Shown here: piece by piece, positions 234 to 10,626 of the stretch | Layout of the letters: every line of letters begins with the position of its first letter | Position numbering within the stretch: position 1 is the first letter of the stretch | Source: a virus | Lineage: Duplodnaviria; Heunggongvirae; Uroviricota; Caudoviricetes | Virus record (IMG/VR): IMGVR_UViG_2695420889_000008 | Direction: 5' to 3' (one strand) | DNA: 10,752 nucleotides | Translations under genes and position numbers: made by a program | The notes under the pieces: model-generated | Seen by the model: only the letters and a program-made list of their open reading frames with translations | What the model was told of the DNA's origin: nothing | The model's database searches: none

Positions 234-986
234 TTATCTTGTCACCTTTCTCAATTGTATCTCTGCATATGCTTCTTCCTGCCAGCACTTTGTAACCAGT
301 TTATCAATGACATCTGCATATCCTTTGTACCACTGATAATCCGTCAGGTCTGGTACCAGCTTCTGGACATGAAGCCGCGCCAGTGTGGTTGGTAAACGGC
401 TAAACCGGTTTCCATTGCAACGCCCACAAACCTTATAAACAGGCGTGCCATGAAGCCGGGTTCTTTTTTCATCCAGGACAATACCTTTACCCTTGCACCC
501 TCTGCATGCTGTGCTGACTTCTCCCTTACCATGACAATGCTGACATAGTTCCTTCACCCACTCTTCCTTAATAACAGATTCCCCGCTTCTGGAGTGTTTC
601 ACCACCTCGCGCAATACATTATGAAATCCAGTACCAGCACAATGCTCACAGCGAGCCTTACTTGCCGCAGACCTGGAATAATCAGCAAAGGCAAAATTCA
701 CAAGGTAAGGAATGATCTGTAGCCGGGTTTCTTCACTCAATTTATTCAATGTCGGGTTATCCAGTGCCATCGCGTAATTGAGCAGACCTTCAATCGCAAA
801 CTGAGGATCCTGAACACCAACTTTTGCCAGGAATAAAGCAAACCCAAGCGTTGCTTTTGACTGCACCATCCCCTGCGCAGCCATCACATCCGTAATTGTT
901 AAACCACCAGAGCCTGTCGCCGGTGCGTCATCGCTCAGTTTTGGAGATTTCGGGGAGTAATATTTCGGTAAGGCTTCAAGGTTCAT
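234..986 (-). CDS. Putative late-gene antiterminator Q-like protein with four DnaJ-type CxxCxGxG zinc-finger repeats
   Basis: 250-aa ORF starting MNLEALPKYYSPK, with GGAG Shine-Dalgarno 7 nt upstream of the ATG at 984-986. Cys repeats RCEHCAGTG, CQHCHGKG, CRGCKGKG, CGRCNGN. Last gene of the rightward operon, immediately before a promoter plus terminator. Family assignment is from position and recollection, not a search. Confidence 0.5.
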   Translation of the reverse strand: MNLEALPKYYSPKSPKLSDDAPATGSGGLTITDVMAAQGMVQSKATLGFALFLAKVGVQDPQFAIEGLLNYAMALDNPTLNKLSEETRLQIIPYLVNFAFADYSRSAASKARCEHCAGTGFHNVLREVVKHSRSGESVIKEEWVKELCQHCHGKGEVSTACRGCKGKGIVLDEKRTRLHGTPVYKVCGRCNGNRFSRLPTTLARLHVQKLVPDLTDYQWYKGYADVIDKLVTKCWQEEAYAEIQLRKVTR

Positions 987-999
987 GCTCGTTCTCCAC

Positions 1000-1989
1000 T
1001 TACGCCAGTACGCCAATTGCCAGCGCACGATCGATAAAACGAAATATCAGCTCCAGCTGAGAGCCATACTTCTCTTCAAATGCCACGGTATCCGCATGCA
1101 GCTCGTCGTGATGCTTTCTGCACAAAGGCAACACAAAAAGGTCATGCGCTTTTGTACCCATTCCACACTGACCGTGGCCTATCAGGTGGTGGGGATCATC
1201 AGCGGGCTTTCCACAACATGCACACGGCTGTGTCTTAACCCAGCGCGTGTACTTTTCATTAACCCAGCGGCGACGTTTTGGGCGTAACATAAAAGACTCC
1301 GGCGACTCCGGATCCACTTTCAGCGCCAGCACCTTTTTCGCTTTATCCTGGATGATGCTGGTGGCAGGAACCGAAGGCACAAGGTCACTTTCCCGGGTGA
1401 CAGACGGCACAACAGGCTTCGGTAATCTCAGTGCCTTACGGGCTGCACTTTCCGGTAAGGCATCCGCCAGGTCATTACGAATCAGCCACCAGCACAGTTC
1501 CGGCATTGTCACAACGTGACTGTCATCAAAACCGAGATCCCGACGCACAACAGACAACACCCAGCGGGTACAGTTATCCGTTGCCATTGATTCCAGCCGT
1601 TCCGTGAACTGATCGCGCAGCTGGTTATCGCAGTGCCAGCACAGACGGATTGCGCCCGGCGTGTGTCGCATTGTGGTCATGTTCTCGCTGTGCCAGTCGG
1701 AATGAGGCCACTGGCAACCTTTTTCACGAAGTAACCAGCGTTCAAGACATTCCACTCCACCAGCACGACGAATCACTGCCTCATTGCGGAACACGGCCCG
1801 AACGGCAGGATCATCCGCCAGCGGTTGTGATGCCGCCGGAACGGCACCACTGGCGAAAGATGAATAACGTTCCGGCTCAGGCTCCAGCAGGACACGCCCC
1901 TGCATAAACAGGGGCATCAGCTCTGAACCGGGCCTGAACAATACGATCCCCATACGCGGGGCAATTTCAGGGGTCAGTAGCGCTCTCAC
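1000..1989 (-). CDS. Nin-region protein with C-terminal HNH-like Cys/His zinc-binding domain (possibly DUF968/NinG-like)
   Basis: ~329-aa ORF. C-terminus CACCGKPADDPHHLIGHG...LCRKHHDELH resembles a beta-beta-alpha-metal nuclease motif. Likely GTG start at 1987-1989 preceded by GAGG (the ORF track begins at 1995). Start is uncertain. Confidence 0.55.
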   Translation of the reverse strand: MRALLTPEIAPRMGIVLFRPGSELMPLFMQGRVLLEPEPERYSSFASGAVPAASQPLADDPAVRAVFRNEAVIRRAGGVECLERWLLREKGCQWPHSDWHSENMTTMRHTPGAIRLCWHCDNQLRDQFTERLESMATDNCTRWVLSVVRRDLGFDDSHVVTMPELCWWLIRNDLADALPESAARKALRLPKPVVPSVTRESDLVPSVPATSIIQDKAKKVLALKVDPESPESFMLRPKRRRWVNEKYTRWVKTQPCACCGKPADDPHHLIGHGQCGMGTKAHDLFVLPLCRKHHDELHADTVAFEEKYGSQLELIFRFIDRALAIGVLA

Positions 1990-1996
1990 GGTCACC

Positions 1997-2806
1997 TCAA
2001 TGAACGGTATCGAGCAGCTTTAACAGCTCAGGGAACCGGGATTCGAAGAAATGCGGCTGCGTCTCGCGCGGATTTGCGGGACTGGTGATGTTCTTGCCGA
2101 ACATGCAGCCTTTCGCCGTCAGCGACCAGAATTTTTTGATGTTGTTAATCGCAGTGCGGCTGTATCGTTCACGTTGTTCAACGATCCCCAGCTTCGCCAT
2201 CTGGTGATATGCCTGATTAGCTGTCAGGCGGATACCATACTGCTTCAGCAGTGCACTCAGTGACAGCGTGGGGCGGCTTGAGCCATCAGGCGCGTCAGCA
2301 GGAGCATCAATGGCATAGCGCGGTGCCAGATTCGGTAAGCCAACAGCCTCCTGGAGTTTCTGACAGGCACCAAGCACTGAAGAGTTAGACAGGTTTAACT
2401 CCCGGCGCATAAAGTCCAGCAGAATCACGCCAGCCTGCATCTTGTCAGCAGCCTGCCCGGATAATTTTTCCGATGCGCTGGTTACCATATCGAAAGTACG
2501 GATCACCTTCAGATGGAATGACGGGCTGATCCACATTGCATAGGCATACACCAGTTCTTTGCAGACATACGTCCCCTGGTTATTTCCGCCATTAATAACG
2601 CTAACTGGTTGATTCTTTTCCAGAGGCGGAATTCCACCCTCGGTGAAAAGTTGTTCAATCAATTCACAGGTTTGCTTATTGGAGAGCCAGTATTTCGGGC
2701 GTTTTTTTTGTTCTCCCCCGGCTGCCCTGTGCAGATCGTTCAGGCTGTAACGCCCATAAGCATCACGACGAACTTCAATACCATCAATGACCATCAGATT
2801 ATTCAT
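1997..2806 (-). CDS. KilA-N domain protein (antirepressor-like)
   Basis: 269-aa ORF. N-terminus MNNLMVIDGIEVRRDAYGRYSLNDLHRAAGG...KYWLSNKQTCELI...GTYVCKELVYAYAMWISPSFHLKVI matches the KilA-N/APSES-type pattern. GAGGAG Shine-Dalgarno 8 nt upstream. Confidence 0.7.
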   Translation of the reverse strand: MNNLMVIDGIEVRRDAYGRYSLNDLHRAAGGEQKKRPKYWLSNKQTCELIEQLFTEGGIPPLEKNQPVSVINGGNNQGTYVCKELVYAYAMWISPSFHLKVIRTFDMVTSASEKLSGQAADKMQAGVILLDFMRRELNLSNSSVLGACQKLQEAVGLPNLAPRYAIDAPADAPDGSSRPTLSLSALLKQYGIRLTANQAYHQMAKLGIVEQRERYSRTAINNIKKFWSLTAKGCMFGKNITSPANPRETQPHFFESRFPELLKLLDTVH

Positions 2807-2825
2807 ACTTCGTTTCTCCTCTTAA

Positions 2826-3215
2826 TCAGGCGGCTGCACCCGCCGGTTTCTCATACTTACTGATAGTGATCTCGACCTTCCCTTTCGGGATAACCGGTCC
2901 CCACTCCACCAGCATTCTTTTCACCTGGCTGTCGTCTTCCCACACACCCGCGTGGGTCAGGGCGTCAAACAGCGCCTTGTTATAGTTGTCCAGATCGCGG
3001 ATCCGGTTATCCGGAGGAAACAACACGATCTCCACTGAAGCAGGTGCCGACGTTGGTTTCGGCAGACGACGTAACTGCTCAACTATTGCTGCGCACGCCG
3101 CGCTCTGAAATTTTCGCCCCGCCTCGCTTATCAGGCTCTTACCAGCAAATGCCCCTTTGTTGGGGTGTCGCCAGTACGTGTTCACGCTGGGCGGGAAAGG
3201 CAGGATCAGCTTCAT
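2826..3215 (-). CDS. rusA: Holliday-junction resolvase RusA
   Basis: 129-aa ORF with RusA hallmarks: LPFPPSVNTYWRH and acidic catalytic cluster RIRDLDNYNKALFDALTHAGVWEDDSQV. ATGA overlap with the upstream gene. Confidence 0.85.
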   Translation of the reverse strand: MKLILPFPPSVNTYWRHPNKGAFAGKSLISEAGRKFQSAACAAIVEQLRRLPKPTSAPASVEIVLFPPDNRIRDLDNYNKALFDALTHAGVWEDDSQVKRMLVEWGPVIPKGKVEITISKYEKPAGAAA

Positions 3216-3538
3216 ACTTTCAGGCCTCTCTCATGTAACCAGTGAGTTGCACGCAGCCTTGCGTTTTCCTCACCGGCAAGCAGTGAGCGGATAATCCCGA
3301 CCGCCTCGCTGTCGTCGTCCTTCACCGCGGTATGAAGCGTGATCCCCCGGGCCACACCACGCTTTATCGTGATGACGCCTTTTTTCTCCAGTGCGCGAAG
3401 ATGCTCCACCGCTGCATTCACCGAACGGTATCCCAGCATGGTTGCCACCTCCTGATTGGTTGGCGGGAAGCCACGTTCTTTCTGATAAGAAATCAGCATA
3501 TCCAGCACCTGCTGCTGGCATTGAGTTAACGTCGTCAT
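3212..3538 (-). CDS. Orphan LexA-like N-terminal DNA-binding-domain protein (no S24 peptidase domain)
   Basis: 108-aa ORF. LTQCQQQVLDMLISYQKERGFPPTNQEVATMLGYRSVNAAVEHLRALEKKGVITIKRGVARGITL aligns by eye to the LexA winged-helix domain, including a near-identical recognition helix (SVNAAVEHLRAL vs LexA SPNAAEEHLKAL). No Ser/Lys peptidase domain. ATGA overlap with the Dam gene. Confidence 0.7.
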   Translation of the reverse strand: MTTLTQCQQQVLDMLISYQKERGFPPTNQEVATMLGYRSVNAAVEHLRALEKKGVITIKRGVARGITLHTAVKDDDSEAVGIIRSLLAGEENARLRATHWLHERGLKV

Positions 3539-4188
3539 GCCGCCATCTCCCTGACCAGTTTTTCCGCCTGCTGGCGAACCTGCGCCAGAAACGCCTCACC
3601 ACATGCCTCAAGTTCATCGCGCCCGATGTAGCTGATTGCCGGTCCCTTCCAGGTCTTGTCAAAAACAGCAATAGCACCAGCGAAAAAAGCTCCTGTCGGC
3701 ACCTGCTTCTCGTCCTTCGGGATAAACCAGGCAGGCAGTTCAAAACCAATACGCCCGCGAATAAAAGCAATATGGTCCGCATCTTCCGGCCACCACACTT
3801 CGCTGGTGGCAGCTTTGATCAGGAAAACATAGCGCCCGCCCTTATCACGCATGGAACTGGCATGTTTCATGATGTAACGCATGCCGGTGATGTATTGCCC
3901 CTCATGCTGACTGGCGCGGCTGTATGGGGGATTACCAAAGGCAGCACCTTTAAGCTCCGCAAGACGTTCTGACCAGTCATGCGCCAGCGCGTTATCTTCC
4001 GCCGTGTAATACGCGGCACATTTGGCGTTATCACCGTCAGTAAACAGATCCAGAACAAACGGGCCAAACAGGGTGTTAATTCCCCAGAAAATGTTGTCCG
4101 GCGTGCGCCACTGATCGCCCACTTCCTTCAGTTCATGGGCTGGTTTGTTCCGCAGTTCCACCAGCGCCTGGCAATATTTATTACTCAT
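3535..4188 (-). CDS. Phage Dam-type DNA N6-adenine methyltransferase
   Basis: Catalytic NPPY motif in FGNPPYSRA; N-terminus MSNKYCQALVELRNKPAHELKEVGDQWRTPDNIFW typical of phage Dam family. Start placed at ATG 4186-4188 (G-rich Shine-Dalgarno, 1-nt overlap with upstream stop) rather than the GTG at 4221. Confidence 0.75.
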   Translation of the reverse strand: MSNKYCQALVELRNKPAHELKEVGDQWRTPDNIFWGINTLFGPFVLDLFTDGDNAKCAAYYTAEDNALAHDWSERLAELKGAAFGNPPYSRASQHEGQYITGMRYIMKHASSMRDKGGRYVFLIKAATSEVWWPEDADHIAFIRGRIGFELPAWFIPKDEKQVPTGAFFAGAIAVFDKTWKGPAISYIGRDELEACGEAFLAQVRQQAEKLVREMAA

Positions 4189-4682
4189 TAAGCCCCCACG
4201 TAATTCCCTGACAGATACCACTCTTCACCCGATGCAGCGCGCTTGCTGCTTTTCCGTAAGCACCGCTCACGACGCGCCAGAAAATTGTTTCGTTCTGGCT
4301 GGGAGTGGCTTTCACGGAATGCCGCCATCCACACCGTTGCAGCACGACGGTATAAGCCCCTGGACTCCAGTTCTTCAGCCTGGCGGGTCAGGCACAAAAT
4401 CACCCGGGGGTCGTTAGTGCCGACATAGAAATTGCGCACAGGTCTGGTTTCACGAACTGGTTGCGGTTCCGATTCCTGCAAAACCTCAGTCTGGCGCGGG
4501 AAATGTCTGCGAGTATCCCCTTCACAACGGTGAGCCACACGCCCACTCTGACGTAACTTGCTTGCTGACTGCAGAACGCGCTGTCGTGAGTAACCTGCAA
4601 AAGCATCCGCAATGTCTCCGGAAGCACACCCCGGATGGGCTTCAATGAATTTCTGAACGTCATTTAACAGACTCATGATCAC
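4188..4682 (-). CDS. Hypothetical early protein with PerC-like C-terminal region
   Basis: 164-aa ORF; ATGA overlap with the O-like gene stop. Segment LESRGLYRRAATVWMAAF resembles the PerC-family core; recollection only. Confidence 0.5.
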   Translation of the reverse strand: MIMSLLNDVQKFIEAHPGCASGDIADAFAGYSRQRVLQSASKLRQSGRVAHRCEGDTRRHFPRQTEVLQESEPQPVRETRPVRNFYVGTNDPRVILCLTRQAEELESRGLYRRAATVWMAAFRESHSQPERNNFLARRERCLRKSSKRAASGEEWYLSGNYVGA

Positions 4683-5497
4683 CCCCTGAATCCTGCCGGG
4701 ATCTGGCTGTAGTCCACGTTGTCGTAACTGGCTTTGAAGTACGGGTCATCGCGTCTGGCTGCAGATACCGCAGGAACTTCCCAGGATTCTTCGAAATGAC
4801 GATCCGGACCAAAGAACGTGACAGCCTGTTTCACAAATTGTGTGCCGCTATTGCCCATCGCAGATACCCAGCCCGCGTAGCGTTTCACACCTTCCAGCAT
4901 GGTTTCGGGGTTTACCCCCTCGTTCAAACGGGCTTTCCAGGCTTTGAAGGCTGCTGATTTTGAATTGCCACCAGCACGTTTGGGGTATGCCAGCCATGCC
5001 TGCTCAAACTCCGGAGAGTATTCCGGTCGGTTTGAACGAACTCGCACAGACTCATCAGCAGATGCACCAACAGCTATTGGTTCATTGACTGGTTCTTTGA
5101 CTGGTTCAAAAGAGTGACTGGTTCTGGGTGAATCTCCTGCACTACCCCCTGGTGCAACTCCTGCACTACCTGGTGAATTTGCTGCACCAGATAGTGAATT
5201 ATTTGCACTACCCCCTAGTGAATCTCCTGCACCATCCAGATGAAGGAGATAGATATTACTTGAGTTACCTTTTTCACCTTTCCGGGTGACTTTTTTTACC
5301 AGCCCGGACTCACAAAGGGCCGCAATATGATTCATCACAGAACGTTTGCTAATCTCGCACTGGTCAGCAATATGCTGGTAGCTGGGCCAGCACTCACCCT
5401 GATCGCTGGCATTATCAGCCAGCTTGATCAGAACCAGTTTTCGCAATGGATTACCCACTCGAATTTTCATCGCTTTAACCATCAGCTCCATACTCAT
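4679..5497 (-). CDS. Replication initiator / replisome organiser (lambda O-like) with internal iterons
   Basis: 272-aa ORF. N-terminus KIRVGNPLRKLVLIKLADNASDQGECWPSYQHIADQCEISKRSVMNHIAALCESGLVKK is a winged-helix replisome-organiser type. Central low-complexity linker (GGSANNSLSGAANSPGSAGVAPGGSAGDSP) is encoded by direct DNA repeats. ATGA overlap with the upstream gene. Confidence 0.7.
   Translation of the reverse strand: MSMELMVKAMKIRVGNPLRKLVLIKLADNASDQGECWPSYQHIADQCEISKRSVMNHIAALCESGLVKKVTRKGEKGNSSNIYLLHLDGAGDSLGGSANNSLSGAANSPGSAGVAPGGSAGDSPRTSHSFEPVKEPVNEPIAVGASADESVRVRSNRPEYSPEFEQAWLAYPKRAGGNSKSAAFKAWKARLNEGVNPETMLEGVKRYAGWVSAMGNSGTQFVKQAVTFFGPDRHFEESWEVPAVSAARRDDPYFKASYDNVDYSQIPAGFRG
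5086..5237. repeat. Direct-repeat (iteron-like) array inside the O-like gene; candidate replication origin
   Basis: Five ~21-24-bp tandem units with core GTGAAT(C/T)T(C/G)CTGCAC at 5128-5237, and three copies of TGACTGGTTC at 5086-5124, all read on the plus strand. Confidence 0.6.
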
Positions 5498-5718
5498 GCT
5501 GCACCTCCGAGATGCTTCATGTTTTTTCCGGAGCGAAAGGCTATGAGCGGCATACTGACGCGGTAATTACGACCCAGCGGTTCACAAATCACCTTCTGAC
5601 ATTCACGGTCAACCAGGCTAACACGTAGAACATGCCCTGCAGGCGTGGTGTACCACTGACCCGGGCGAGGACAACGGAAAGTTTGATTGGTAAACCGTTT
5701 GAAAATATTTCGGATCAT
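5494..5718 (-). CDS. Hypothetical small protein (74 aa)
   Basis: ORF bracketed by ATGA overlaps on both sides (5715-5718 and 5494-5497), which argues for translation; no recognisable motif. Confidence 0.45.
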   Translation of the reverse strand: MIRNIFKRFTNQTFRCPRPGQWYTTPAGHVLRVSLVDRECQKVICEPLGRNYRVSMPLIAFRSGKNMKHLGGAA

Positions 5719-6866
5719 TTGCGCCCCCTTACCTCTGAAGAGTTCAGCGACGAATGAATAAGACGGGCAAGAAATGCCGCATCGTTAATTCGGTCATACA
5801 GACTTACAGCCAGCGGTGATTCAGCTTTTTCCAGCATGGGATAAAGCTGCTGCAACCAGACCTGATGAATTGATGAAATGTAGGAATAGAGAACGCTGGC
5901 GTTATGTGCAACGTCACTCGGTACAGCGAGCTTTGAAAGCTGTTTCTCCATCTGGTTAAAGGCATTGATGTATGCCTCTTTGAACTGGGCAGCACGTTTA
6001 CCCGTGAAACCCATAGCAAGAAACGCAAAGCCGTCGCGGGTTATTTGATAGCAAGGTAGTTTGCGGCCTGTGCAATCGGTGTAATCACTCACCGAAAAAT
6101 TGCGGGCAGTGAATGATGCGGAGCATTCAAGCGTGCGGATCTTTTTCAGAACATCGTCATGACGTTTGGAGAAGAAGTTGGCAACAGCCAGGGATGAAGT
6201 AACAGCCTGACCATCAACGATGGCAATTTCGGGTTGAGTGAGGGTTGGGATCGTAGCCATGATGGCAGCCTCTTTGGTGATTTTTAATAACTCACCACCA
6301 AGGCTTTCCACGACCTTATTGGTGGTGAGACGTACAGGGGTGGAAATACCGGTCACCAAAGAACCCGGCCCAACCGAAGTTGGCCCTGCACGCCCCACCA
6401 TAATTTGGGCGTAATGCTGCTCATGACACAAAAAAACCGCAAGAGCGCGGTTGTGCGCTTTGGTGAATTCCGGGTTTCCACGCCCGGCACCCGCTTTATA
6501 AGGTGCCTGAACAGTGTAACGTCCCGGAATGGCAGAATCAATGTGCTGGTGGTCCTTCACACTCAACAAAATCACGCCTGAATTTCCACAAAGGACTAAA
6601 GCACTCATGCGGGTAGTCTTTGCGAAGATAGATAACGCGCTGTGTTTCTGGCTCCCAACGAATAACATGGACATAAAGCCCTCTTCCGTCACGAAACCAG
6701 CGGTTAAGTTCCTGCACAACTCGCCCCCCACAGTCAGGTAAAGTTCTCTGTGGTTACTTACAGCCAGGTGATTTGGTAATCTGCATTCATGCCGTAACAA
6801 CAGGTGTTCAGCGACACTGACCACCAGCTGTTGCGACAAACGGTTATTTGCCGTTAAACTGTTCAT
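5715..6866 (-). CDS. Rha-family phage regulatory protein, C-terminal 181 aa, with ~200-aa in-frame N-terminal extension of unknown function
   Basis: Rha signature VTSSLAVANFFSKRHDDVLKKIRTL...ITRDGFAFLAMGFTGKRAAQFKEAYINAFNQME lies in the C-terminal half. The open frame runs 383 codons from an ATG (6864-6866) that overlaps the CII-like stop (ATGA). A second start at 6258-6260 has an AGAGG Shine-Dalgarno and would give a stand-alone Rha protein (5715-6260). Which start is used is unresolved. Confidence 0.55.
   Translation of the reverse strand: MNSLTANNRLSQQLVVSVAEHLLLRHECRLPNHLAVSNHRELYLTVGGELCRNLTAGFVTEEGFMSMLFVGSQKHSALSIFAKTTRMSALVLCGNSGVILLSVKDHQHIDSAIPGRYTVQAPYKAGAGRGNPEFTKAHNRALAVFLCHEQHYAQIMVGRAGPTSVGPGSLVTGISTPVRLTTNKVVESLGGELLKITKEAAIMATIPTLTQPEIAIVDGQAVTSSLAVANFFSKRHDDVLKKIRTLECSASFTARNFSVSDYTDCTGRKLPCYQITRDGFAFLAMGFTGKRAAQFKEAYINAFNQMEKQLSKLAVPSDVAHNASVLYSYISSIHQVWLQQLYPMLEKAESPLAVSLYDRINDAAFLARLIHSSLNSSEVRGRK
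6430..6452 (-). terminator. Intragenic terminator-like hairpin inside the N-terminal extension of the Rha ORF
   Basis: Minus strand: ACCGC-gctctt-GCGGT followed by T6-7. Short stem, so weak. Confidence 0.3.
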
Positions 6867-7426
6867 GCGTTAGTTTCTCCACAGACACAAAACGCCACGA
6901 CGCCCGGAGCTGCACACTCGCGGGCGTCACTCTTTTCTGGAGCGCAAAAGATTTTGTAGACCAGTGCTGCATGCTCCTGGAGCTTCGAAATTGACAGATA
7001 CAACTCATCATTAATTGCTGTCTGCTCGTGTGGCTCCACGACCCCATCTTCGATTGCCGAACGAATCTGCTTTGAGTAATTCCCGATCTGTTCGATGACT
7101 TCCAGCAGGCGCTGGTTTATATCGGCGTTCTCTACTTCCTCAATTTCAGGAAGCGATACGAACACCCCACCAGCAGACTGTGCGACAGCATCCGCAATGT
7201 AGTGAGTGCCAGCCGCGCGCTGTAAAACCATTGCCCATCCCAGCGGGAAAATCTGATCGCCATCGGCACGAAGGCGGTTAAATAATGCGTTCTCTGTTAC
7301 ATCCAGCCAGTCAGCTGCTTCAGCGTAACCACCCGGCAACGCTGCGATAGTTTTTCTGACAGCTTTCACGTACCACTCAGGCTGTTTTTCTACTTTCCAG
7401 TGATACTTACCCACGGTTAGCCTCAT
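6863..7426 (-). CDS. CII-like early regulatory protein (tentative)
   Basis: 187-aa ORF immediately downstream of the Cro-like gene, stop overlapping the next start. Family guess is from position and recollection only; weak Shine-Dalgarno. Confidence 0.4.
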   Translation of the reverse strand: MRLTVGKYHWKVEKQPEWYVKAVRKTIAALPGGYAEAADWLDVTENALFNRLRADGDQIFPLGWAMVLQRAAGTHYIADAVAQSAGGVFVSLPEIEEVENADINQRLLEVIEQIGNYSKQIRSAIEDGVVEPHEQTAINDELYLSISKLQEHAALVYKIFCAPEKSDARECAAPGVVAFCVCGETNA

Positions 7427-7457
7427 CGTTCTGTGGTTAAAAATTGAAGGTGTTCTG

Positions 7458-7658
7458 TTAATCTTTCGGATAGATATCCGGTCTTAAGTCAGATTTCGTA
7501 ATTGCACCTGACGTGCATTGCTCAAGTTTTTTAGCCAGCACAAAACTGGCTTTTTTATAACCATTGAAAACCAGCCGTAAGTAGCCTGGTGTTGAGCCAA
7601 CTTTTCCGGCCAACTCGCCCTGCTGTTCTTTGGTTAAAGAGTCCCAATACGCTTTCAT
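7458..7658 (-). CDS. Cro-like HTH repressor
   Basis: 66-aa ORF starting MKAYWDSLTKEQQGELAGKVG, with GGAGG Shine-Dalgarno 10 nt upstream. Divergent from the CI-like gene across an operator-rich spacer. The ORF-track start at 7682 has no Shine-Dalgarno and was rejected. Confidence 0.6.
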   Translation of the reverse strand: MKAYWDSLTKEQQGELAGKVGSTPGYLRLVFNGYKKASFVLAKKLEQCTSGAITKSDLRPDIYPKD

Positions 7659-7664
7659 ACAATA

Positions 7665-7731
7665 TGTACCTCCAATATACATATTACATGATTAATATGA
7701 ACCTTCAAGATACTTGTACCTTATCGGTACA
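7665..7731. promoter_or_regulatory. OR-like operator region between the divergent Cro-like and CI-like genes
   Basis: Two 17-bp sites: TGTACC-tccaa-TATACA (7665-7681) and TGTACC-ttatc-GGTACA (7715-7731). Candidate leaderless PRM: TTGTAC (7714-7719), 17-bp spacer, TTTAAT (7737-7742), start near the cI ATG at 7749. Candidate PR on the minus strand: TTGAAG (7703-7708) and TAATAT (7681-7686). Confidence 0.5.
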
Positions 7732-7748
7732 AAGGTTTTAATTTCTTT

Positions 7749-8423
7749 ATGAAAACAGTCCATGACATCCGGCGGTCTAACGCCAGAAAACTGAGAGATG
7801 GTGTTGGCGGGAATTCTTCCTTTGCCACCATGATTGATCGCGAGCCAACCCAGACCAGCAGGTTTATGGGAGATGGTGCTACTAAAAATATCGGTGACAG
7901 CATGGCACGGCACATCGAAAAATGTTTCGACCTGCCTGTCGGATGGCTTGATCAAGAACACCAGACCACGAACATCACAAAAAAACCTGATGTTTCAATC
8001 ACTAACAAACAAATAACGTTAGTCCCTGTCATATCATGGGTACAGGCCGGAGCATGGAAAGAAGTTGGCTATTCTGAGGTTGATTTGAGCACAGCAGAAA
8101 CTTATCCCTGCCCTGTACCCTGTGGCGAAATGACTTATATCTTGCGGGTGATTGGTGATTCAATGATTGATGAGTACCGCCCGGGAGACATGATTTTTGT
8201 TGATCCCGAAGTCCCTGCCTGCCACGGTGACGACGTTATTGCATTGATGCACGATACAGGCGAAACCACCTTCAAGCGATTGATAGAAGATGGAACACAG
8301 CGTTATCTCAAAGCATTAAACCCAAACTGGCCTGAGCCTTACATTAAGATTAACGGTAATTGCTCTATAATTGGTACAGTAATTTTCTCAGGAAAACCAA
8401 GAAGATACAAAATAAAGGCCTAA
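7749..8423 (+). CDS. CI/DicA-type prophage repressor with LexA-like S24 autopeptidase domain
   Basis: 224-aa ORF. C-terminal domain has the S24 motifs GDSM (catalytic Ser), GDMIFVD and TFKRL (catalytic Lys). N-terminal domain ends in the VGWLD motif typical of C2/CI-type DNA-binding domains. Confidence 0.85.
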   Translation: MKTVHDIRRSNARKLRDGVGGNSSFATMIDREPTQTSRFMGDGATKNIGDSMARHIEKCFDLPVGWLDQEHQTTNITKKPDVSITNKQITLVPVISWVQAGAWKEVGYSEVDLSTAETYPCPVPCGEMTYILRVIGDSMIDEYRPGDMIFVDPEVPACHGDDVIALMHDTGETTFKRLIEDGTQRYLKALNPNWPEPYIKINGNCSIIGTVIFSGKPRRYKIKA

Positions 8424-8434
8424 TCAATATTTAT

Positions 8435-8457
8435 AACCTGCTTCGGCAGGTTTTTTT
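8435..8457 (+). terminator. Rho-independent terminator after the repressor gene
   Basis: AACCTGC-ttcg-GCAGGTT hairpin followed by T7, 12 nt after the cI stop. Confidence 0.75.
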
Positions 8458-8461
8458 ATAC

Positions 8462-8494
8462 TTGACAATGTACCCACAAGATACATAATGTATC
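8462..8494 (+). promoter_or_regulatory. PL/PdicB-like repressor-controlled promoter with embedded operator
   Basis: -35 TTGACA (8462-8467), 16-bp spacer, -10 CATAAT (8484-8489). Operator-like TGTACC-cacaa-GATACA (8469-8485) fills the spacer; the 15-bp perfect palindrome GATACATAATGTATC (8480-8494) overlaps the -10. Confidence 0.6.
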
Positions 8495-8892
8495 TAAAAG
8501 AAACATGCCGCAGGCAAGATTAAACAAAATTTGGTTGTAACACGGCGTATGGCACATGCGTCGTTAGCGGTCTGGGGACGTTAAAGGGGACAATCCACTC
8601 CTTGCTCGGGCAAAAAAACCAGGTAGCCGGAATGTGCAAGTCAATGATGATGCTGATAAGACGCCTAACCAGCGCGGCGATCCGGTTTGACGCCTGGGAA
8701 GAGACCAGGGTGCAACGATGAGGGCATTTATGGAACCGCGACAAAGTGTGGTGCCGTAACTGGCTAAGTGCTCTCAGCGTTGTGGTAATCCGCGAAATGG
8801 CGCGGCGGTAAGTATGGCGGGGTTACTCTTTCCCCGTTGAGGACACCGGATTGTCAGGTTGACCATACGCCTGAGTGACAACCCCACCACAA

Positions 8893-8952
8893 CAGCCACT
8901 GCTTTGGCGGTACCAGTTTGTACACTTGCTTCCGGCTGGTACCGCTCTTTTT
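8893..8952 (+). ncRNA. dicF: DicF-like small RNA with intrinsic terminator (tentative)
   Basis: TTTGGCGGTACCAGTTTGTAC matches the remembered E. coli Qin DicF core GTTTGGCGGTATCAGTTTTAC at 19 of 22 positions. It sits in an 11-bp-stem hairpin (GGCGGTACCAG 8906-8916 / CTGGTACCGCT 8936-8946) followed by TCTTTTT. Context matches dicA - promoter - leader - dicF. Compared from memory, not by search. Confidence 0.45.
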
Positions 8953-9041
8953 ACAAAACAGAGAAGAGCATCACCGGACGACGGGCTCATAACCCAATCC
9001 AGCCGGGCGGCTGCCACCGCAGGTGTTCTTCTCTGTTTTGT
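8953..9041 (+). other. Large RNA hairpin (17-bp stem) in the leader just upstream of the first left-operon gene
   Basis: ACAAAACAGAGAAGAGC (8953-8969) pairs with GTTCTTCTCTGTTTTGT (9025-9041) with one G-U wobble. The 55-nt loop holds two small hairpins (CAGCC-gggc-GGCTG, CACC-gca-GGTG). Candidate RNase III or regulatory element. Confidence 0.45.
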
Positions 9042-9089
9042 GGAGAAACCAACCGACCTTGCAGGGTCGATATGATGAGGAGCAGCAAA

Positions 9090-9452
9090 ATGGCTAGCGA
9101 ACGCAGTACTGATGTGCAGGCATTTATCGGGGAGCTGGACGGCGGCGTATTTGAAACCAAAATCGGCGCTGTTCTCAGTGAAGTCGCTTCCGGTGTGATG
9201 AACACGAAAACCAAAGGTAAGGTCTCGCTCAACCTGGAAATCGAACCGTTTGATGAGAACCGTGTGAAAATCAAACACAAACTCTCATATGTTCGCCCGA
9301 CTAACCGCGGGAAAATTTCCGAAGAAGACACCACCGAAACGCCGATGTATGTCAATCGCGGTGGTCGCCTGACTATTCTGCAGGAAGACCAGGGACAATT
9401 ACTGACTCTTGCCGGTGAACCTGACGGAAAACTCCGCGCAGCAGGTAATTAA
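9090..9452 (+). CDS. Hypothetical 120-aa early left-operon protein (YfdP-like by recollection)
   Basis: ORF starting MASERSTDVQAF with GAGGAG Shine-Dalgarno 7 nt upstream; in-frame ATGs at 9072 and 9075 lack a Shine-Dalgarno. Function unknown. Confidence 0.6.
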   Translation: MASERSTDVQAFIGELDGGVFETKIGAVLSEVASGVMNTKTKGKVSLNLEIEPFDENRVKIKHKLSYVRPTNRGKISEEDTTETPMYVNRGGRLTILQEDQGQLLTLAGEPDGKLRAAGN

Positions 9453-9517
9453 TATCGTTCTTAATTAACCGATTATTTATCTCATCACTGAATATCTTTA
9501 TATAGTGAGGACTTATT

Positions 9518-10342
9518 ATGTCTCAGAACTTAGACGCAACCGCAATTAATCAAATTCATGCCCTTATTTCTGCTCAGGGTGTTAATGAAATTATCAGTAA
9601 GATTGGTGCCGATGCTGTGGCATTGCCTGAGAATTTCCGCATTCATGATCTGGAAAAATTTAATTTAAATCGCTTCCGTTTCCGTGGTGCACTTTCGACT
9701 GCCAGCATCGATGATTTTACCCGTTATTCTAAAGATCTTGCAGATGAAGGCACCCGCTGCTTTATCGACGCCGATAATATGCGTGCCGTCAGTGTACTTA
9801 ACCTGGGTACTATCGATGAACCAGGTCACGCAGATAACACCGCCACTCTCAAACTGAAAAAGACAGCACCGTTCTCTGCCCTGTTGTCTGTTAACGGCGA
9901 GCGTAACTCCCAGAAGTCACTGGCAGAATGGATTGAAGACTGGGCCGACTACCTTGTGGGCTTTGATGCTAATGGTGACGCCATTCAGGCAACAAAAGCG
10001 GCTGCGGCTGTCCGTAAAATCACGATTGAAGCAAACCAGACCGCTGATTTTGAAGATAATGACTTCAGCGGCAAACGCTCCCTGATGGAGTCTGTCGAAG
10101 CGAAGACCAAAGACATTATGCCAGTGGCATGTGAATTTAAATGCGTTCCGTTTGAAGGCCTGAAAGAACGTCCGTTTAAATTACGCCTCAGCATTATCAC
10201 TGGCGATCGTCCTGTACTGGTTCTGCGCATTATTCAGCTGGAAGCAGTGCAGGAAGAAATGGCTAACGAATTTCGTGATCTGCTTGTTGAGAAATTCAAA
10301 GACAGCAAAGTAGAAACTTTTATTGGTACTTTCACCGCCTGA
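9518..10342 (+). CDS. Hypothetical 274-aa protein (YfdQ-like, DUF2303-type by recollection)
   Basis: Clean ORF with GAGGA Shine-Dalgarno 8 nt upstream, AT-richer than the flanking DNA, followed by a hairpin. Family name is from memory only. Confidence 0.65.
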
Positions 10343-10354
10343 TTTCATTACTGC

Positions 10355-10380
10355 AAATGCCCCTGCGGGGGCATTTATGG
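10355..10380 (+). terminator. Terminator/attenuator-like hairpin after the 274-aa gene
   Basis: AAATGCCCC-tgcg-GGGGCATTT 9-bp GC-rich stem followed by a weak T-tract (TTTATGG). Confidence 0.4.
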
Positions 10381-10470
10381 AAACGTAATTAACTCAATAA
10401 TCGCCGGATGGTGCGGGATTCCTTTTACCCGAATTCAGCGCGGTGCAGCGCATATAAAGTGGAGAACGAA

Positions 10471-10626
10471 ATGTCATTTATTAAAACTTTTTCCGGGAAG
10501 CATTTTTATTATGACAAGATAAATAAAGATGACATCGTTATTAACGATATCGCGGTTTCCCTTTCAAATATGTGTCGCTTTGCCGGCCATCTTTCACACT
10601 TCTACAGCGTCGCCCAACATGCGGTG
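10471..10626 (+). pseudogene. HD-domain phosphohydrolase-like gene (YfdR-like), truncated after 52 codons by IS insertion
   Basis: GGAG Shine-Dalgarno then MSFIKTFSGKHFYYDKINKDDIVINDIAVSLSNMCRFAGHLSHFYSVAQHAV. Reading frame ends at TGA 10627-10629, which is the first triplet of the IS terminal repeat, before any HD motif. Confidence 0.55.

Follow-up and report, generated by a model that had tools for sequence, protein, structure and literature searches.

Gene context of the KilA-N gene

The window, by which we mean the whole stretch of 10,752 nucleotides of viral DNA analysed here, is the segment from the immunity region to Q of a lambdoid prophage of Shiga-toxigenic-type E. coli. The O145:H28 strains RM12581 and RM13514 contain it with 100% identity, and prophages of O26 and other strains match it at ca. 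99%. The gene order of the minus strand is cro-like, cII-like, Rha/Ash, O-like, PerC, Dam, LexA-DBD (a protein with the LexA DNA-binding domain only), RusA, the KilA-N gene, DUF968/HNH and Q (Table 1). The KilA-N gene, which is the subject of this work, runs from an ATG at 2806 to its TGA stop and encodes 269 aa, as read from the sequence and the ORF list. The first-pass annotation had placed here a KilA-N domain protein within the nin region, and our results bear out both the identity and the placement: the ORF is real, its product scores 97.2 bits against PF04383 (cut-off 23.8, E = 6.1e-28), far beyond chance, and the gene lies between RusA and DUF968/HNH, just ahead of Q. The product also matches PHROG 129 ('transcriptional regulator') over its full length (phrog_129, E = 1.4e-128), and RefSeq labels its homologue as 'KilA-N domain-containing protein'.

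Table 1. Position of the KilA-N gene, its parts and the other features identified in the window.
Feature	Position	Strand	Basis
Q antiterminator	234-1028	(-)	
DUF968/HNH protein	1000-1995	(-)	
KilA-N gene stop TGA (1997-1999), overlapped or abutted by the DUF968/HNH GTG starts (1995 or 1989)	1989-1999	(-)	Sequence, ORF list, RefSeq coordinates
KilA-N gene, whole CDS: KilA-N head, helical linker and conserved C-terminal module	1997-2806	(-)	ORF list, phrog_129, AlphaFold2
Basic core of the C-module, aa 181-269	2000-2266	(-)	Models, alignments
Conserved non-helical segment LPxYAIDAP...GSSxPT, aa 156-180	2267-2341	(-)	Alignments
Helical linker, aa 110-155	2342-2479	(-)	DSSP of model
KilA-N domain, aa 7-109, putative DNA-binding head	2480-2788	(-)	Pfam PF04383
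Hypervariable allelic cassette, aa ~26-75	2580-2731	(-)	Homologue identity profile, E2865 comparison
Shine-Dalgarno AGGAG, 9 nt 5' of the KilA-N gene ATG	2816-2820	(-)	Read from sequence
RusA	2826-3215	(-)	
Protein with LexA DNA-binding domain only	3212-3538	(-)	Pfam PF01726
Dam methylase	3535-4221	(-)	
PerC/YfdN	4188-4682	(-)	Pfam PF06069
O-like HTH_36 protein	4679-5497	(-)	
Rha/Ash protein, 383 aa	5715-6866	(-)	
C4 antisense RNA	6318-6405	(-)	Rfam, 83.6 bits
isrK RNA	6430-6506	(-)	Rfam, 67 bits
Terminator-like hairpin	6452-6435	(-)	
cII-like	6863-7426	(-)	
cro-like	7458-7682	(-)	
LexA/S24-type repressor	7749-8423	(+)	
Terminator-like hairpin	8435-8452	(+)	
Sigma-70 consensus match, TTGACA-16-CATAAT	8462-8489	(+)	11/12 consensus positions

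The RusA stop (2826-2828) is separated by 19 nt from the start of the KilA-N gene and, at the other end, the overlap between the KilA-N stop and the DUF968/HNH start suggests translational coupling of these two genes, so that the KilA-N gene is apparently translationally coupled within the lytic early-right operon. A promoter of its own was not found, the sole nearby promoter-like match (2825-2798) ending within the ORF, and promoter-like matches across the whole window are fewer than expected from shuffled sequence. Matches to the LexA box occur in the window at chance level, with none upstream of the KilA-N gene, and the 5' end of that gene showed neither repeats nor special features. The early-right (nin) position is conserved and leaves no room for an own promoter; from gene order only, we infer a delayed-early expression during lytic growth.

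The KilA-N gene is commonplace, an ordinary early gene of lambda-like E. coli prophages: 2292 of 5426 complete E. coli genomes (42%) contain it, usually in one copy and at most in four. The block RusA/KilA-N gene/DUF968/Q is kept in Shigella phage SfII, in Salmonella ST64B (where the gene is Sb46), in Stx-converting phages and in many E. coli prophages, and the longer order from O-like through PerC, Dam, LexA-DBD, RusA, the KilA-N gene and DUF968 to Q is found in SfII, ST64B and, again, many E. coli prophages. Phage mEp460 carries a homologue with 86% identity. In the searchable literature we found no functional work on this protein family, and ST64B Sb46 turned up solely as a marker for PCR typing. 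Downstream of the block, three loci from Stx-converting prophages with a 265-aa allele carry RusA/KilA-N/DUF968/Q directly upstream of the genes for stx A and B, which were recognised by Pfam RIP and SLT_beta; in E. coli E2865, Q is followed by tRNA genes and nanS-p, without stx. Many otherwise near-identical E. coli prophage regions contain an IS600/IS3 insertion that is absent from the window, and because of it the best full-coverage matches to the window are split into two to four pieces.

Several other features of the window deserve mention. Inside the Rha/Ash ORF, Rfam identifies a C4 antisense RNA and an isrK RNA, and the same ORF contains a terminator-like hairpin. This set resembles the P4 CI/seqA and the Gifsy-1 IsrK-orf45-AnrP arrangement (PMC10111431, PMC4825925) and, by analogy, may let RNA control termination at a checkpoint that precedes the replication and nin genes, the KilA-N gene included. 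What is annotated as a single 383-aa Rha/Ash CDS may comprise a short leader ORF and an AnrP-like protein. The LexA-DBD gene encodes a 108-aa protein (PF01726, E = 3e-19) that lacks the S24 peptidase part and keeps its place in this nin module both in SfII and across many E. coli prophages; this protein could be a non-cleavable LexA mimic that binds SOS boxes in lytic growth. Its neighbour beyond Dam is a putative transcriptional activator of the PerC family (YfdN-like, PF06069, E = 7e-9), which was found in the same operon in all the relatives examined. On the plus strand, a terminator-like hairpin directly follows the repressor gene, and next to it is a match to the sigma-70 consensus that is presumably the leftward early promoter; the following ca. 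600 bp (8490-9078) have no RefSeq annotation in the homologous locus.

A conserved C-terminal module with six alternative DNA-binding heads

Sequence searches did not identify the C-terminal part of the KilA-N protein in curated resources. With aa 110-269, there was no Pfam match even at E ≤ 10, and the C-terminal half also had no match in NCBIfam or among PDB sequences, so the earlier description of the last ca. 150 aa as an uncharacterised half with no recognised motif is correct as to these libraries. Conversely, when 1.8 billion representative proteins, clustered at 50% identity, were searched exhaustively with HMMER, homologues of the C-terminal half emerged in 787 clusters at E ≤ 0.001, 382 of them at E ≤ 1e-10. 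Among 97 full-length homologues, this C-module was preceded by Phage_pRha (32), Bro-N (18), KilA-N (12), AntA (7), ORF6N (6) or P22_AR_N (1), and there were also single members with helix-turn-helix heads of the IclR, GntR or LysR type. The C-module is, then, a widespread module and not an orphan, which occurs with six alternative DNA-binding heads.

Other apparent fusions seem to be of a different kind. The databases contain chimeras in which the first ca. 190 aa of the KilA-N protein are joined to the Q antiterminator, baseplate J or tail-tip J, as well as others comprising the N-terminus of Dam plus the C-module, or a frameshifted tail. Because their junctions fall mid-domain in near-identical sequences, we consider them products of prophage deletion and decay, or of assembly, and we rejected fusions to Q, baseplate J, tail J or Dam as true architectures.

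The C-module extends over about aa 120-269 and consists of two helices, a conserved non-helical stretch and a core with the motifs FWSxTxxGxxYGKN and NPRETQPHW. The linker is formed by a long helix (aa 95-137), which starts inside the KilA-N head, and a second helix (aa 141-155); from about aa 120 it is conserved jointly with the C-module, and alignments to homologues with other heads begin at positions ca. 10-25 of the C-half query. The non-helical segment that follows has invariant P162, Y164 and D167, and near-invariant S176, S177 and T180; its pLDDT is 72-88 in the full model and 52-60 when the C-module is modelled alone. In the core, G207, R214, G237, K238 and N239 are invariant and E248, T249, Q250, P251 and H252 nearly so. 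The core has a net charge of +7 and a pI of 10.0, the family median pI being 9.1.

AlphaFold2 modelled the protein with a mean pLDDT of 90.2 at full length and of 88.6 for the tail alone, reaching 93-97 in the tail core. The full-length model comprises the KilA-N head, a 43-residue helix plus the second helix, the conserved coil, a helix-helix-beta-hairpin unit, a second beta-hairpin and a terminal helix; the core fold is thus predicted as two helices, two beta-hairpins and a terminal helix. Foldseek found no significant match for the full-length model in the PDB, or for the C-module model in the PDB and BFVD. The weak fold neighbours of the tail are mostly winged helices of the PadR, RTP, DnaD-N and MarR types (E 0.17-2, TM ca. 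0.3, 55-66 aligned columns), and a profile search of the PDB matched best to 1xma, a 'predicted transcriptional regulator', in its recognition-helix/wing segment (E = 0.65, non-significant). Since all the fold matches of the C-module are non-significant (E ≥ 0.17), we only tentatively designate it from its model as a winged-helix-like nucleic-acid-binding module; its many invariant polar residues would suit a catalytic or ligand-binding site just as well as a surface that contacts DNA.

We also evaluated the relation of the C-module to KilAC/ANT (PF03374), the tail domain of P1 KilA and Roi. Pfam detects this domain in P1 KilA with E = 2e-32 and in Roi of HK633 with E = 1e-32, versus no match even at E ≤ 10 in aa 110-269 of the KilA-N protein. 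A search of IMG/VR with P1 KilA-C for diverse ANT domains returned only identical P1-like copies, and the ANT alignment was composed of 11 sequences from diverse phage records. In hhalign, 52 C-modules aligned with these 11 ANT domains with a probability of 14% and E = 0.0019 over 44 columns, corresponding to the helix-turn-helix segment only, and comparison of the tail with the single P1 KilA sequence aligned only a 9-residue motif. The C-module was therefore rejected as a KilAC/ANT domain, with Pfam being negative and hhalign covering at most what may be a shared helix-turn-helix core; the two may have such a core in common from a distant origin, but the C-module is not a member of PF03374. 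A match of the C-terminal domain to a known antirepressor family, which had been anticipated as evidence against a defence role, is partly borne out: the tail also occurs behind AntA, P22_AR_N, Bro-N and Rha heads, in proteins that often bear an antirepressor annotation, but it is not a curated antirepressor family.

The gene is of practical use for annotation. Its C-module is large, well conserved, confidently foldable and absent from Pfam, NCBIfam and the PDB, and it is part of the Bro/KilA/Rha/Ant swapping network. Naming it would end the repeated flagging of such proteins as possible BstA-like defence genes.

A hypervariable cassette within the KilA-N domain

Comparison with 102 close homologues indicated that identity to the window protein is 14-51% at aa 31-70, versus 85-100% over most other positions. 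At least five discrete alleles of this cassette, of 33-53 residues each, occupy the same slot. In the model, the cassette spans the end of helix 22-28, helices 37-41 and 44-56, a loop and strand 68-71. The full protein model shows a weak match to the APSES DNA-binding domain of Mbp1 (1mb1/1bm8; Foldseek probability 0.44-0.51, TM 0.45 on target) and, by analogy with APSES domains, the cassette would correspond to the helix-turn-helix and wing of KilA-N.

The window and E. coli E2865 differ in 127 alignment columns over 10.6 kb, of which 71 are concentrated in positions 2575-2735 and 12 more are within ca. 200-250 nt on either side of these. There are zero differences at 1-2368 and 2854-8475; near the immunity region, only 3 nt are changed, at 8476-8478 in the spacer of the promoter-like sequence, and scattered changes occur at 8762-10617, in the yfdP/yfdQ region and beyond. 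The cluster of differences looks like a recent patch replacement. A sharply bounded cassette that is swapped between otherwise identical prophages is a detail of these genes newly noted here.

The cassette alleles vary independently of the immunity type. For instance, one allele accompanies three types of repressor, of 224, 228 and 208 aa, and one YmfK-type immunity region carries two alleles. A link between cassette and immunity repressor was consequently rejected, as were links to the Q type, the replication module, RusA or DUF968, all of which stay 96-100% identical. Likewise, no co-varying DNA site tied to the cassette was found in the 10.6 kb common to the window and E2865. Independence from immunity counts against a repressor-specific antirepressor with its specificity in the cassette, and the pattern fits a DNA-binding protein with an exchangeable recognition element. 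To our knowledge, the recognition target of KilA-N domains is still poorly known for any phage, and the cassette offers a simple handle for probing what they recognise.

Possible roles and comparison with known systems

Our preferred reading, which we hold with moderate confidence, is that the KilA-N protein regulates lytic development as a delayed-early DNA-binding protein, sequence-specific and probably oligomeric. The protein would be made as a delayed-early lytic product, and the helix-turn-helix/wing region of its KilA-N head would bind a specific DNA sequence, this being exactly the part that is exchanged as a cassette. The constant basic C-module would supply a common effector activity, in the form of a second nucleic-acid contact or of a contact with a partner, and the protein might thereby modulate phage transcription, replication or recombination in lytic growth. 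Such a role would resemble those of Roi and P1 KilA, two proteins of equivalent position and build whose C-domain is a different one.

Four other roles compete with that of a lytic regulator, together with one that gives the cassette a different meaning. An antirepressor, binding and inactivating the repressor of its own or of a co-resident prophage in the manner of P22/P1 Ant and the Gifsy antirepressors, seems unlikely. Relatives of the C-module are annotated as 'anti-repressor Ant' (F10 gp36, with a Bro-N head), the module is fused to the antirepressor-typical heads AntA, P22_AR_N, Bro-N and Rha, and trans-acting antirepressors are known in enterobacterial prophages (PMC3121763). However, those 'Ant' annotations derive from similarity only, and the PR operon, far inside which the gene lies, is transcribed only once the repressor is already inactive. 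A functional antirepressor of the P22 Ant, P1 Ant or Gifsy GfoA/GfhA type would be expected to have a regulated transcription unit apart from the repressor-controlled early operons, with LexA- or Mnt/C4-type control; the KilA-N gene has neither a promoter nor a LexA box of its own, and its cassette does not co-vary with immunity type. Also unlikely, in our view, is a C-module that works as a small enzyme or as an effector that binds a ligand (nuclease-like or nucleotide-binding, for example), is brought to DNA by interchangeable heads and serves replication or recombination with RusA and DUF968/HNH. An unusually large number of polar residues are invariant or nearly so within ca. 110 aa (Y164, D167, S176/S177, R214, K238, N239, E248, Q250 and H252), the second beta-hairpin, with the YGKN and RETQPH motifs, is not explained by any fold neighbour, RusA and DUF968/HNH always adjoin the KilA-N gene in enterobacterial prophages, and Roi similarly adjoins the YbcO nuclease gene and RusA. 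Yet similarity to known catalytic domains is nil, both by sequence and by fold, the RusA/DUF968 neighbours are absent around distant homologues, and the high pI is compatible with simple nucleic-acid binding. A host-killing or host-takeover protein, toxic when expressed, is suggested by the KilA-N head held in common with P1 KilA (41% identity over aa 2-105) and by the annotation of P1 kilA, whose 'product can kill host', although the C-domains differ, the one in P1 KilA being ANT; on balance, we find this role quite improbable.

The suggestion of a defence or exclusion function in the first-pass annotation started from a general statement that is right, that KilA-N heads with variable tails occur in antirepressors and in BstA. 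Our data, however, do not back such a function, and we regard it as very improbable that the protein shields the lysogen from superinfecting phages by BstA-like or other abortive infection. Like the KilA-N protein, BstA from BTP1 is prophage-encoded and combines a KilA-N-like head with a separate C-terminal domain, and its gene has at the 5' end a cognate anti-BstA DNA element, aba, defined functionally. But the two are not detectably related in sequence: BLASTP against BstA of BTP1 (ST313-td in the BTP1 record) gave E = 0.32, the PADLOC BstA model had no match to the KilA-N protein at E ≤ 0.1, while scoring 1.9e-124 with BstA-BTP1 itself, and the KilA-N-like domain of BstA is missed by Pfam. 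Direct kinship with BstA was rejected on these grounds. The sole PADLOC match of the KilA-N protein was to the candidate PDC-S22 (E = 7e-7), and it is limited to 39 aa of the KilA-N core. BstA genes sit downstream of the prophage repressor, cI, and are expressed in lysogens; the KilA-N gene belongs to the lytic operon, flanked there by RusA and DUF968, ca. 5 kb from the repressor gene and on the opposite strand. Distant homologues of the C-module, in F10 and in a prophage-like element carried by a 137-kb contig in assembly GCA_902859985.1, are found in early operons and not in defence islands. Hypervariable cassettes with sharp bounds also occur at arms-race interfaces, and there is a slim chance that the C-module is a new catalytic or ligand-binding effector domain, with the cassette as such an interface and the protein as a factor in phage-phage or phage-satellite conflict. 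If so, the protein would be a trigger, an anti-defence or an exclusion protein instead of a housekeeping regulator.

One closely related system is the Bro network (Iyer, Koonin and Aravind 2002; Mageeney and colleagues). KilA-N is a listed domain of this network and the C-module recurs with different network domains, a fusion to many heads that is the signature of the network; the KilA-N protein shares with it the interchangeable DNA-binding heads and tails, following the same domain-swapping logic, and differs in that its particular tail is unnamed in Pfam. The network includes 144 segment groups beyond ten Pfam families, and experimentally characterised members, CapR among them, act as sequence-specific repressors (PMC10111431).

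Among proteins with the same tail, gp36 from Pseudomonas phage F10 is also an early gene product of a temperate phage and shares the C-module, with 40% identity over aa 129-265, but it has a Bro-N head. Other relatives with this tail and Bro-N, Rha, ORF6N or AntA heads are likewise encoded by early genes of temperate phages, and differ in their heads, for example ORF6N. Their location also sets these proteins apart, since it is the early-left operon and not the early-right one. Phage APSE-2 contains three tandem Bro-network genes (3501-6194), for protein G, P43 (Bro-N) and P42 'Roi' (Rha); protein G consists of KilA-N plus the same C-module as the KilA-N protein, with which it is 37% identical.

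Roi, from lambdoid phages of the HK022/HK620/HK633 type and Stx phages, was reportedly described by Clerget and Boccard in 1996 as a DNA-binding protein that affects lytic growth. It is a Bro-network protein of two modules and ca. 240-270 aa, and its gene in HK633 is located in the nin region, beside the YbcO nuclease gene and RusA and shortly before Q. Roi differs in having a Phage_pRha head and a KilAC/ANT tail, as opposed to the KilA-N head and the other tail of the KilA-N protein. From the equivalent position in the nin region of HK633, we consider the KilA-N gene analogous to roi in architecture and position, with both modules exchanged. P1 KilA, in turn, resembles the KilA-N protein in its head, its length (266 aa), its two domains and its expression in the lytic phase, and is distinguished from it by the ANT tail.
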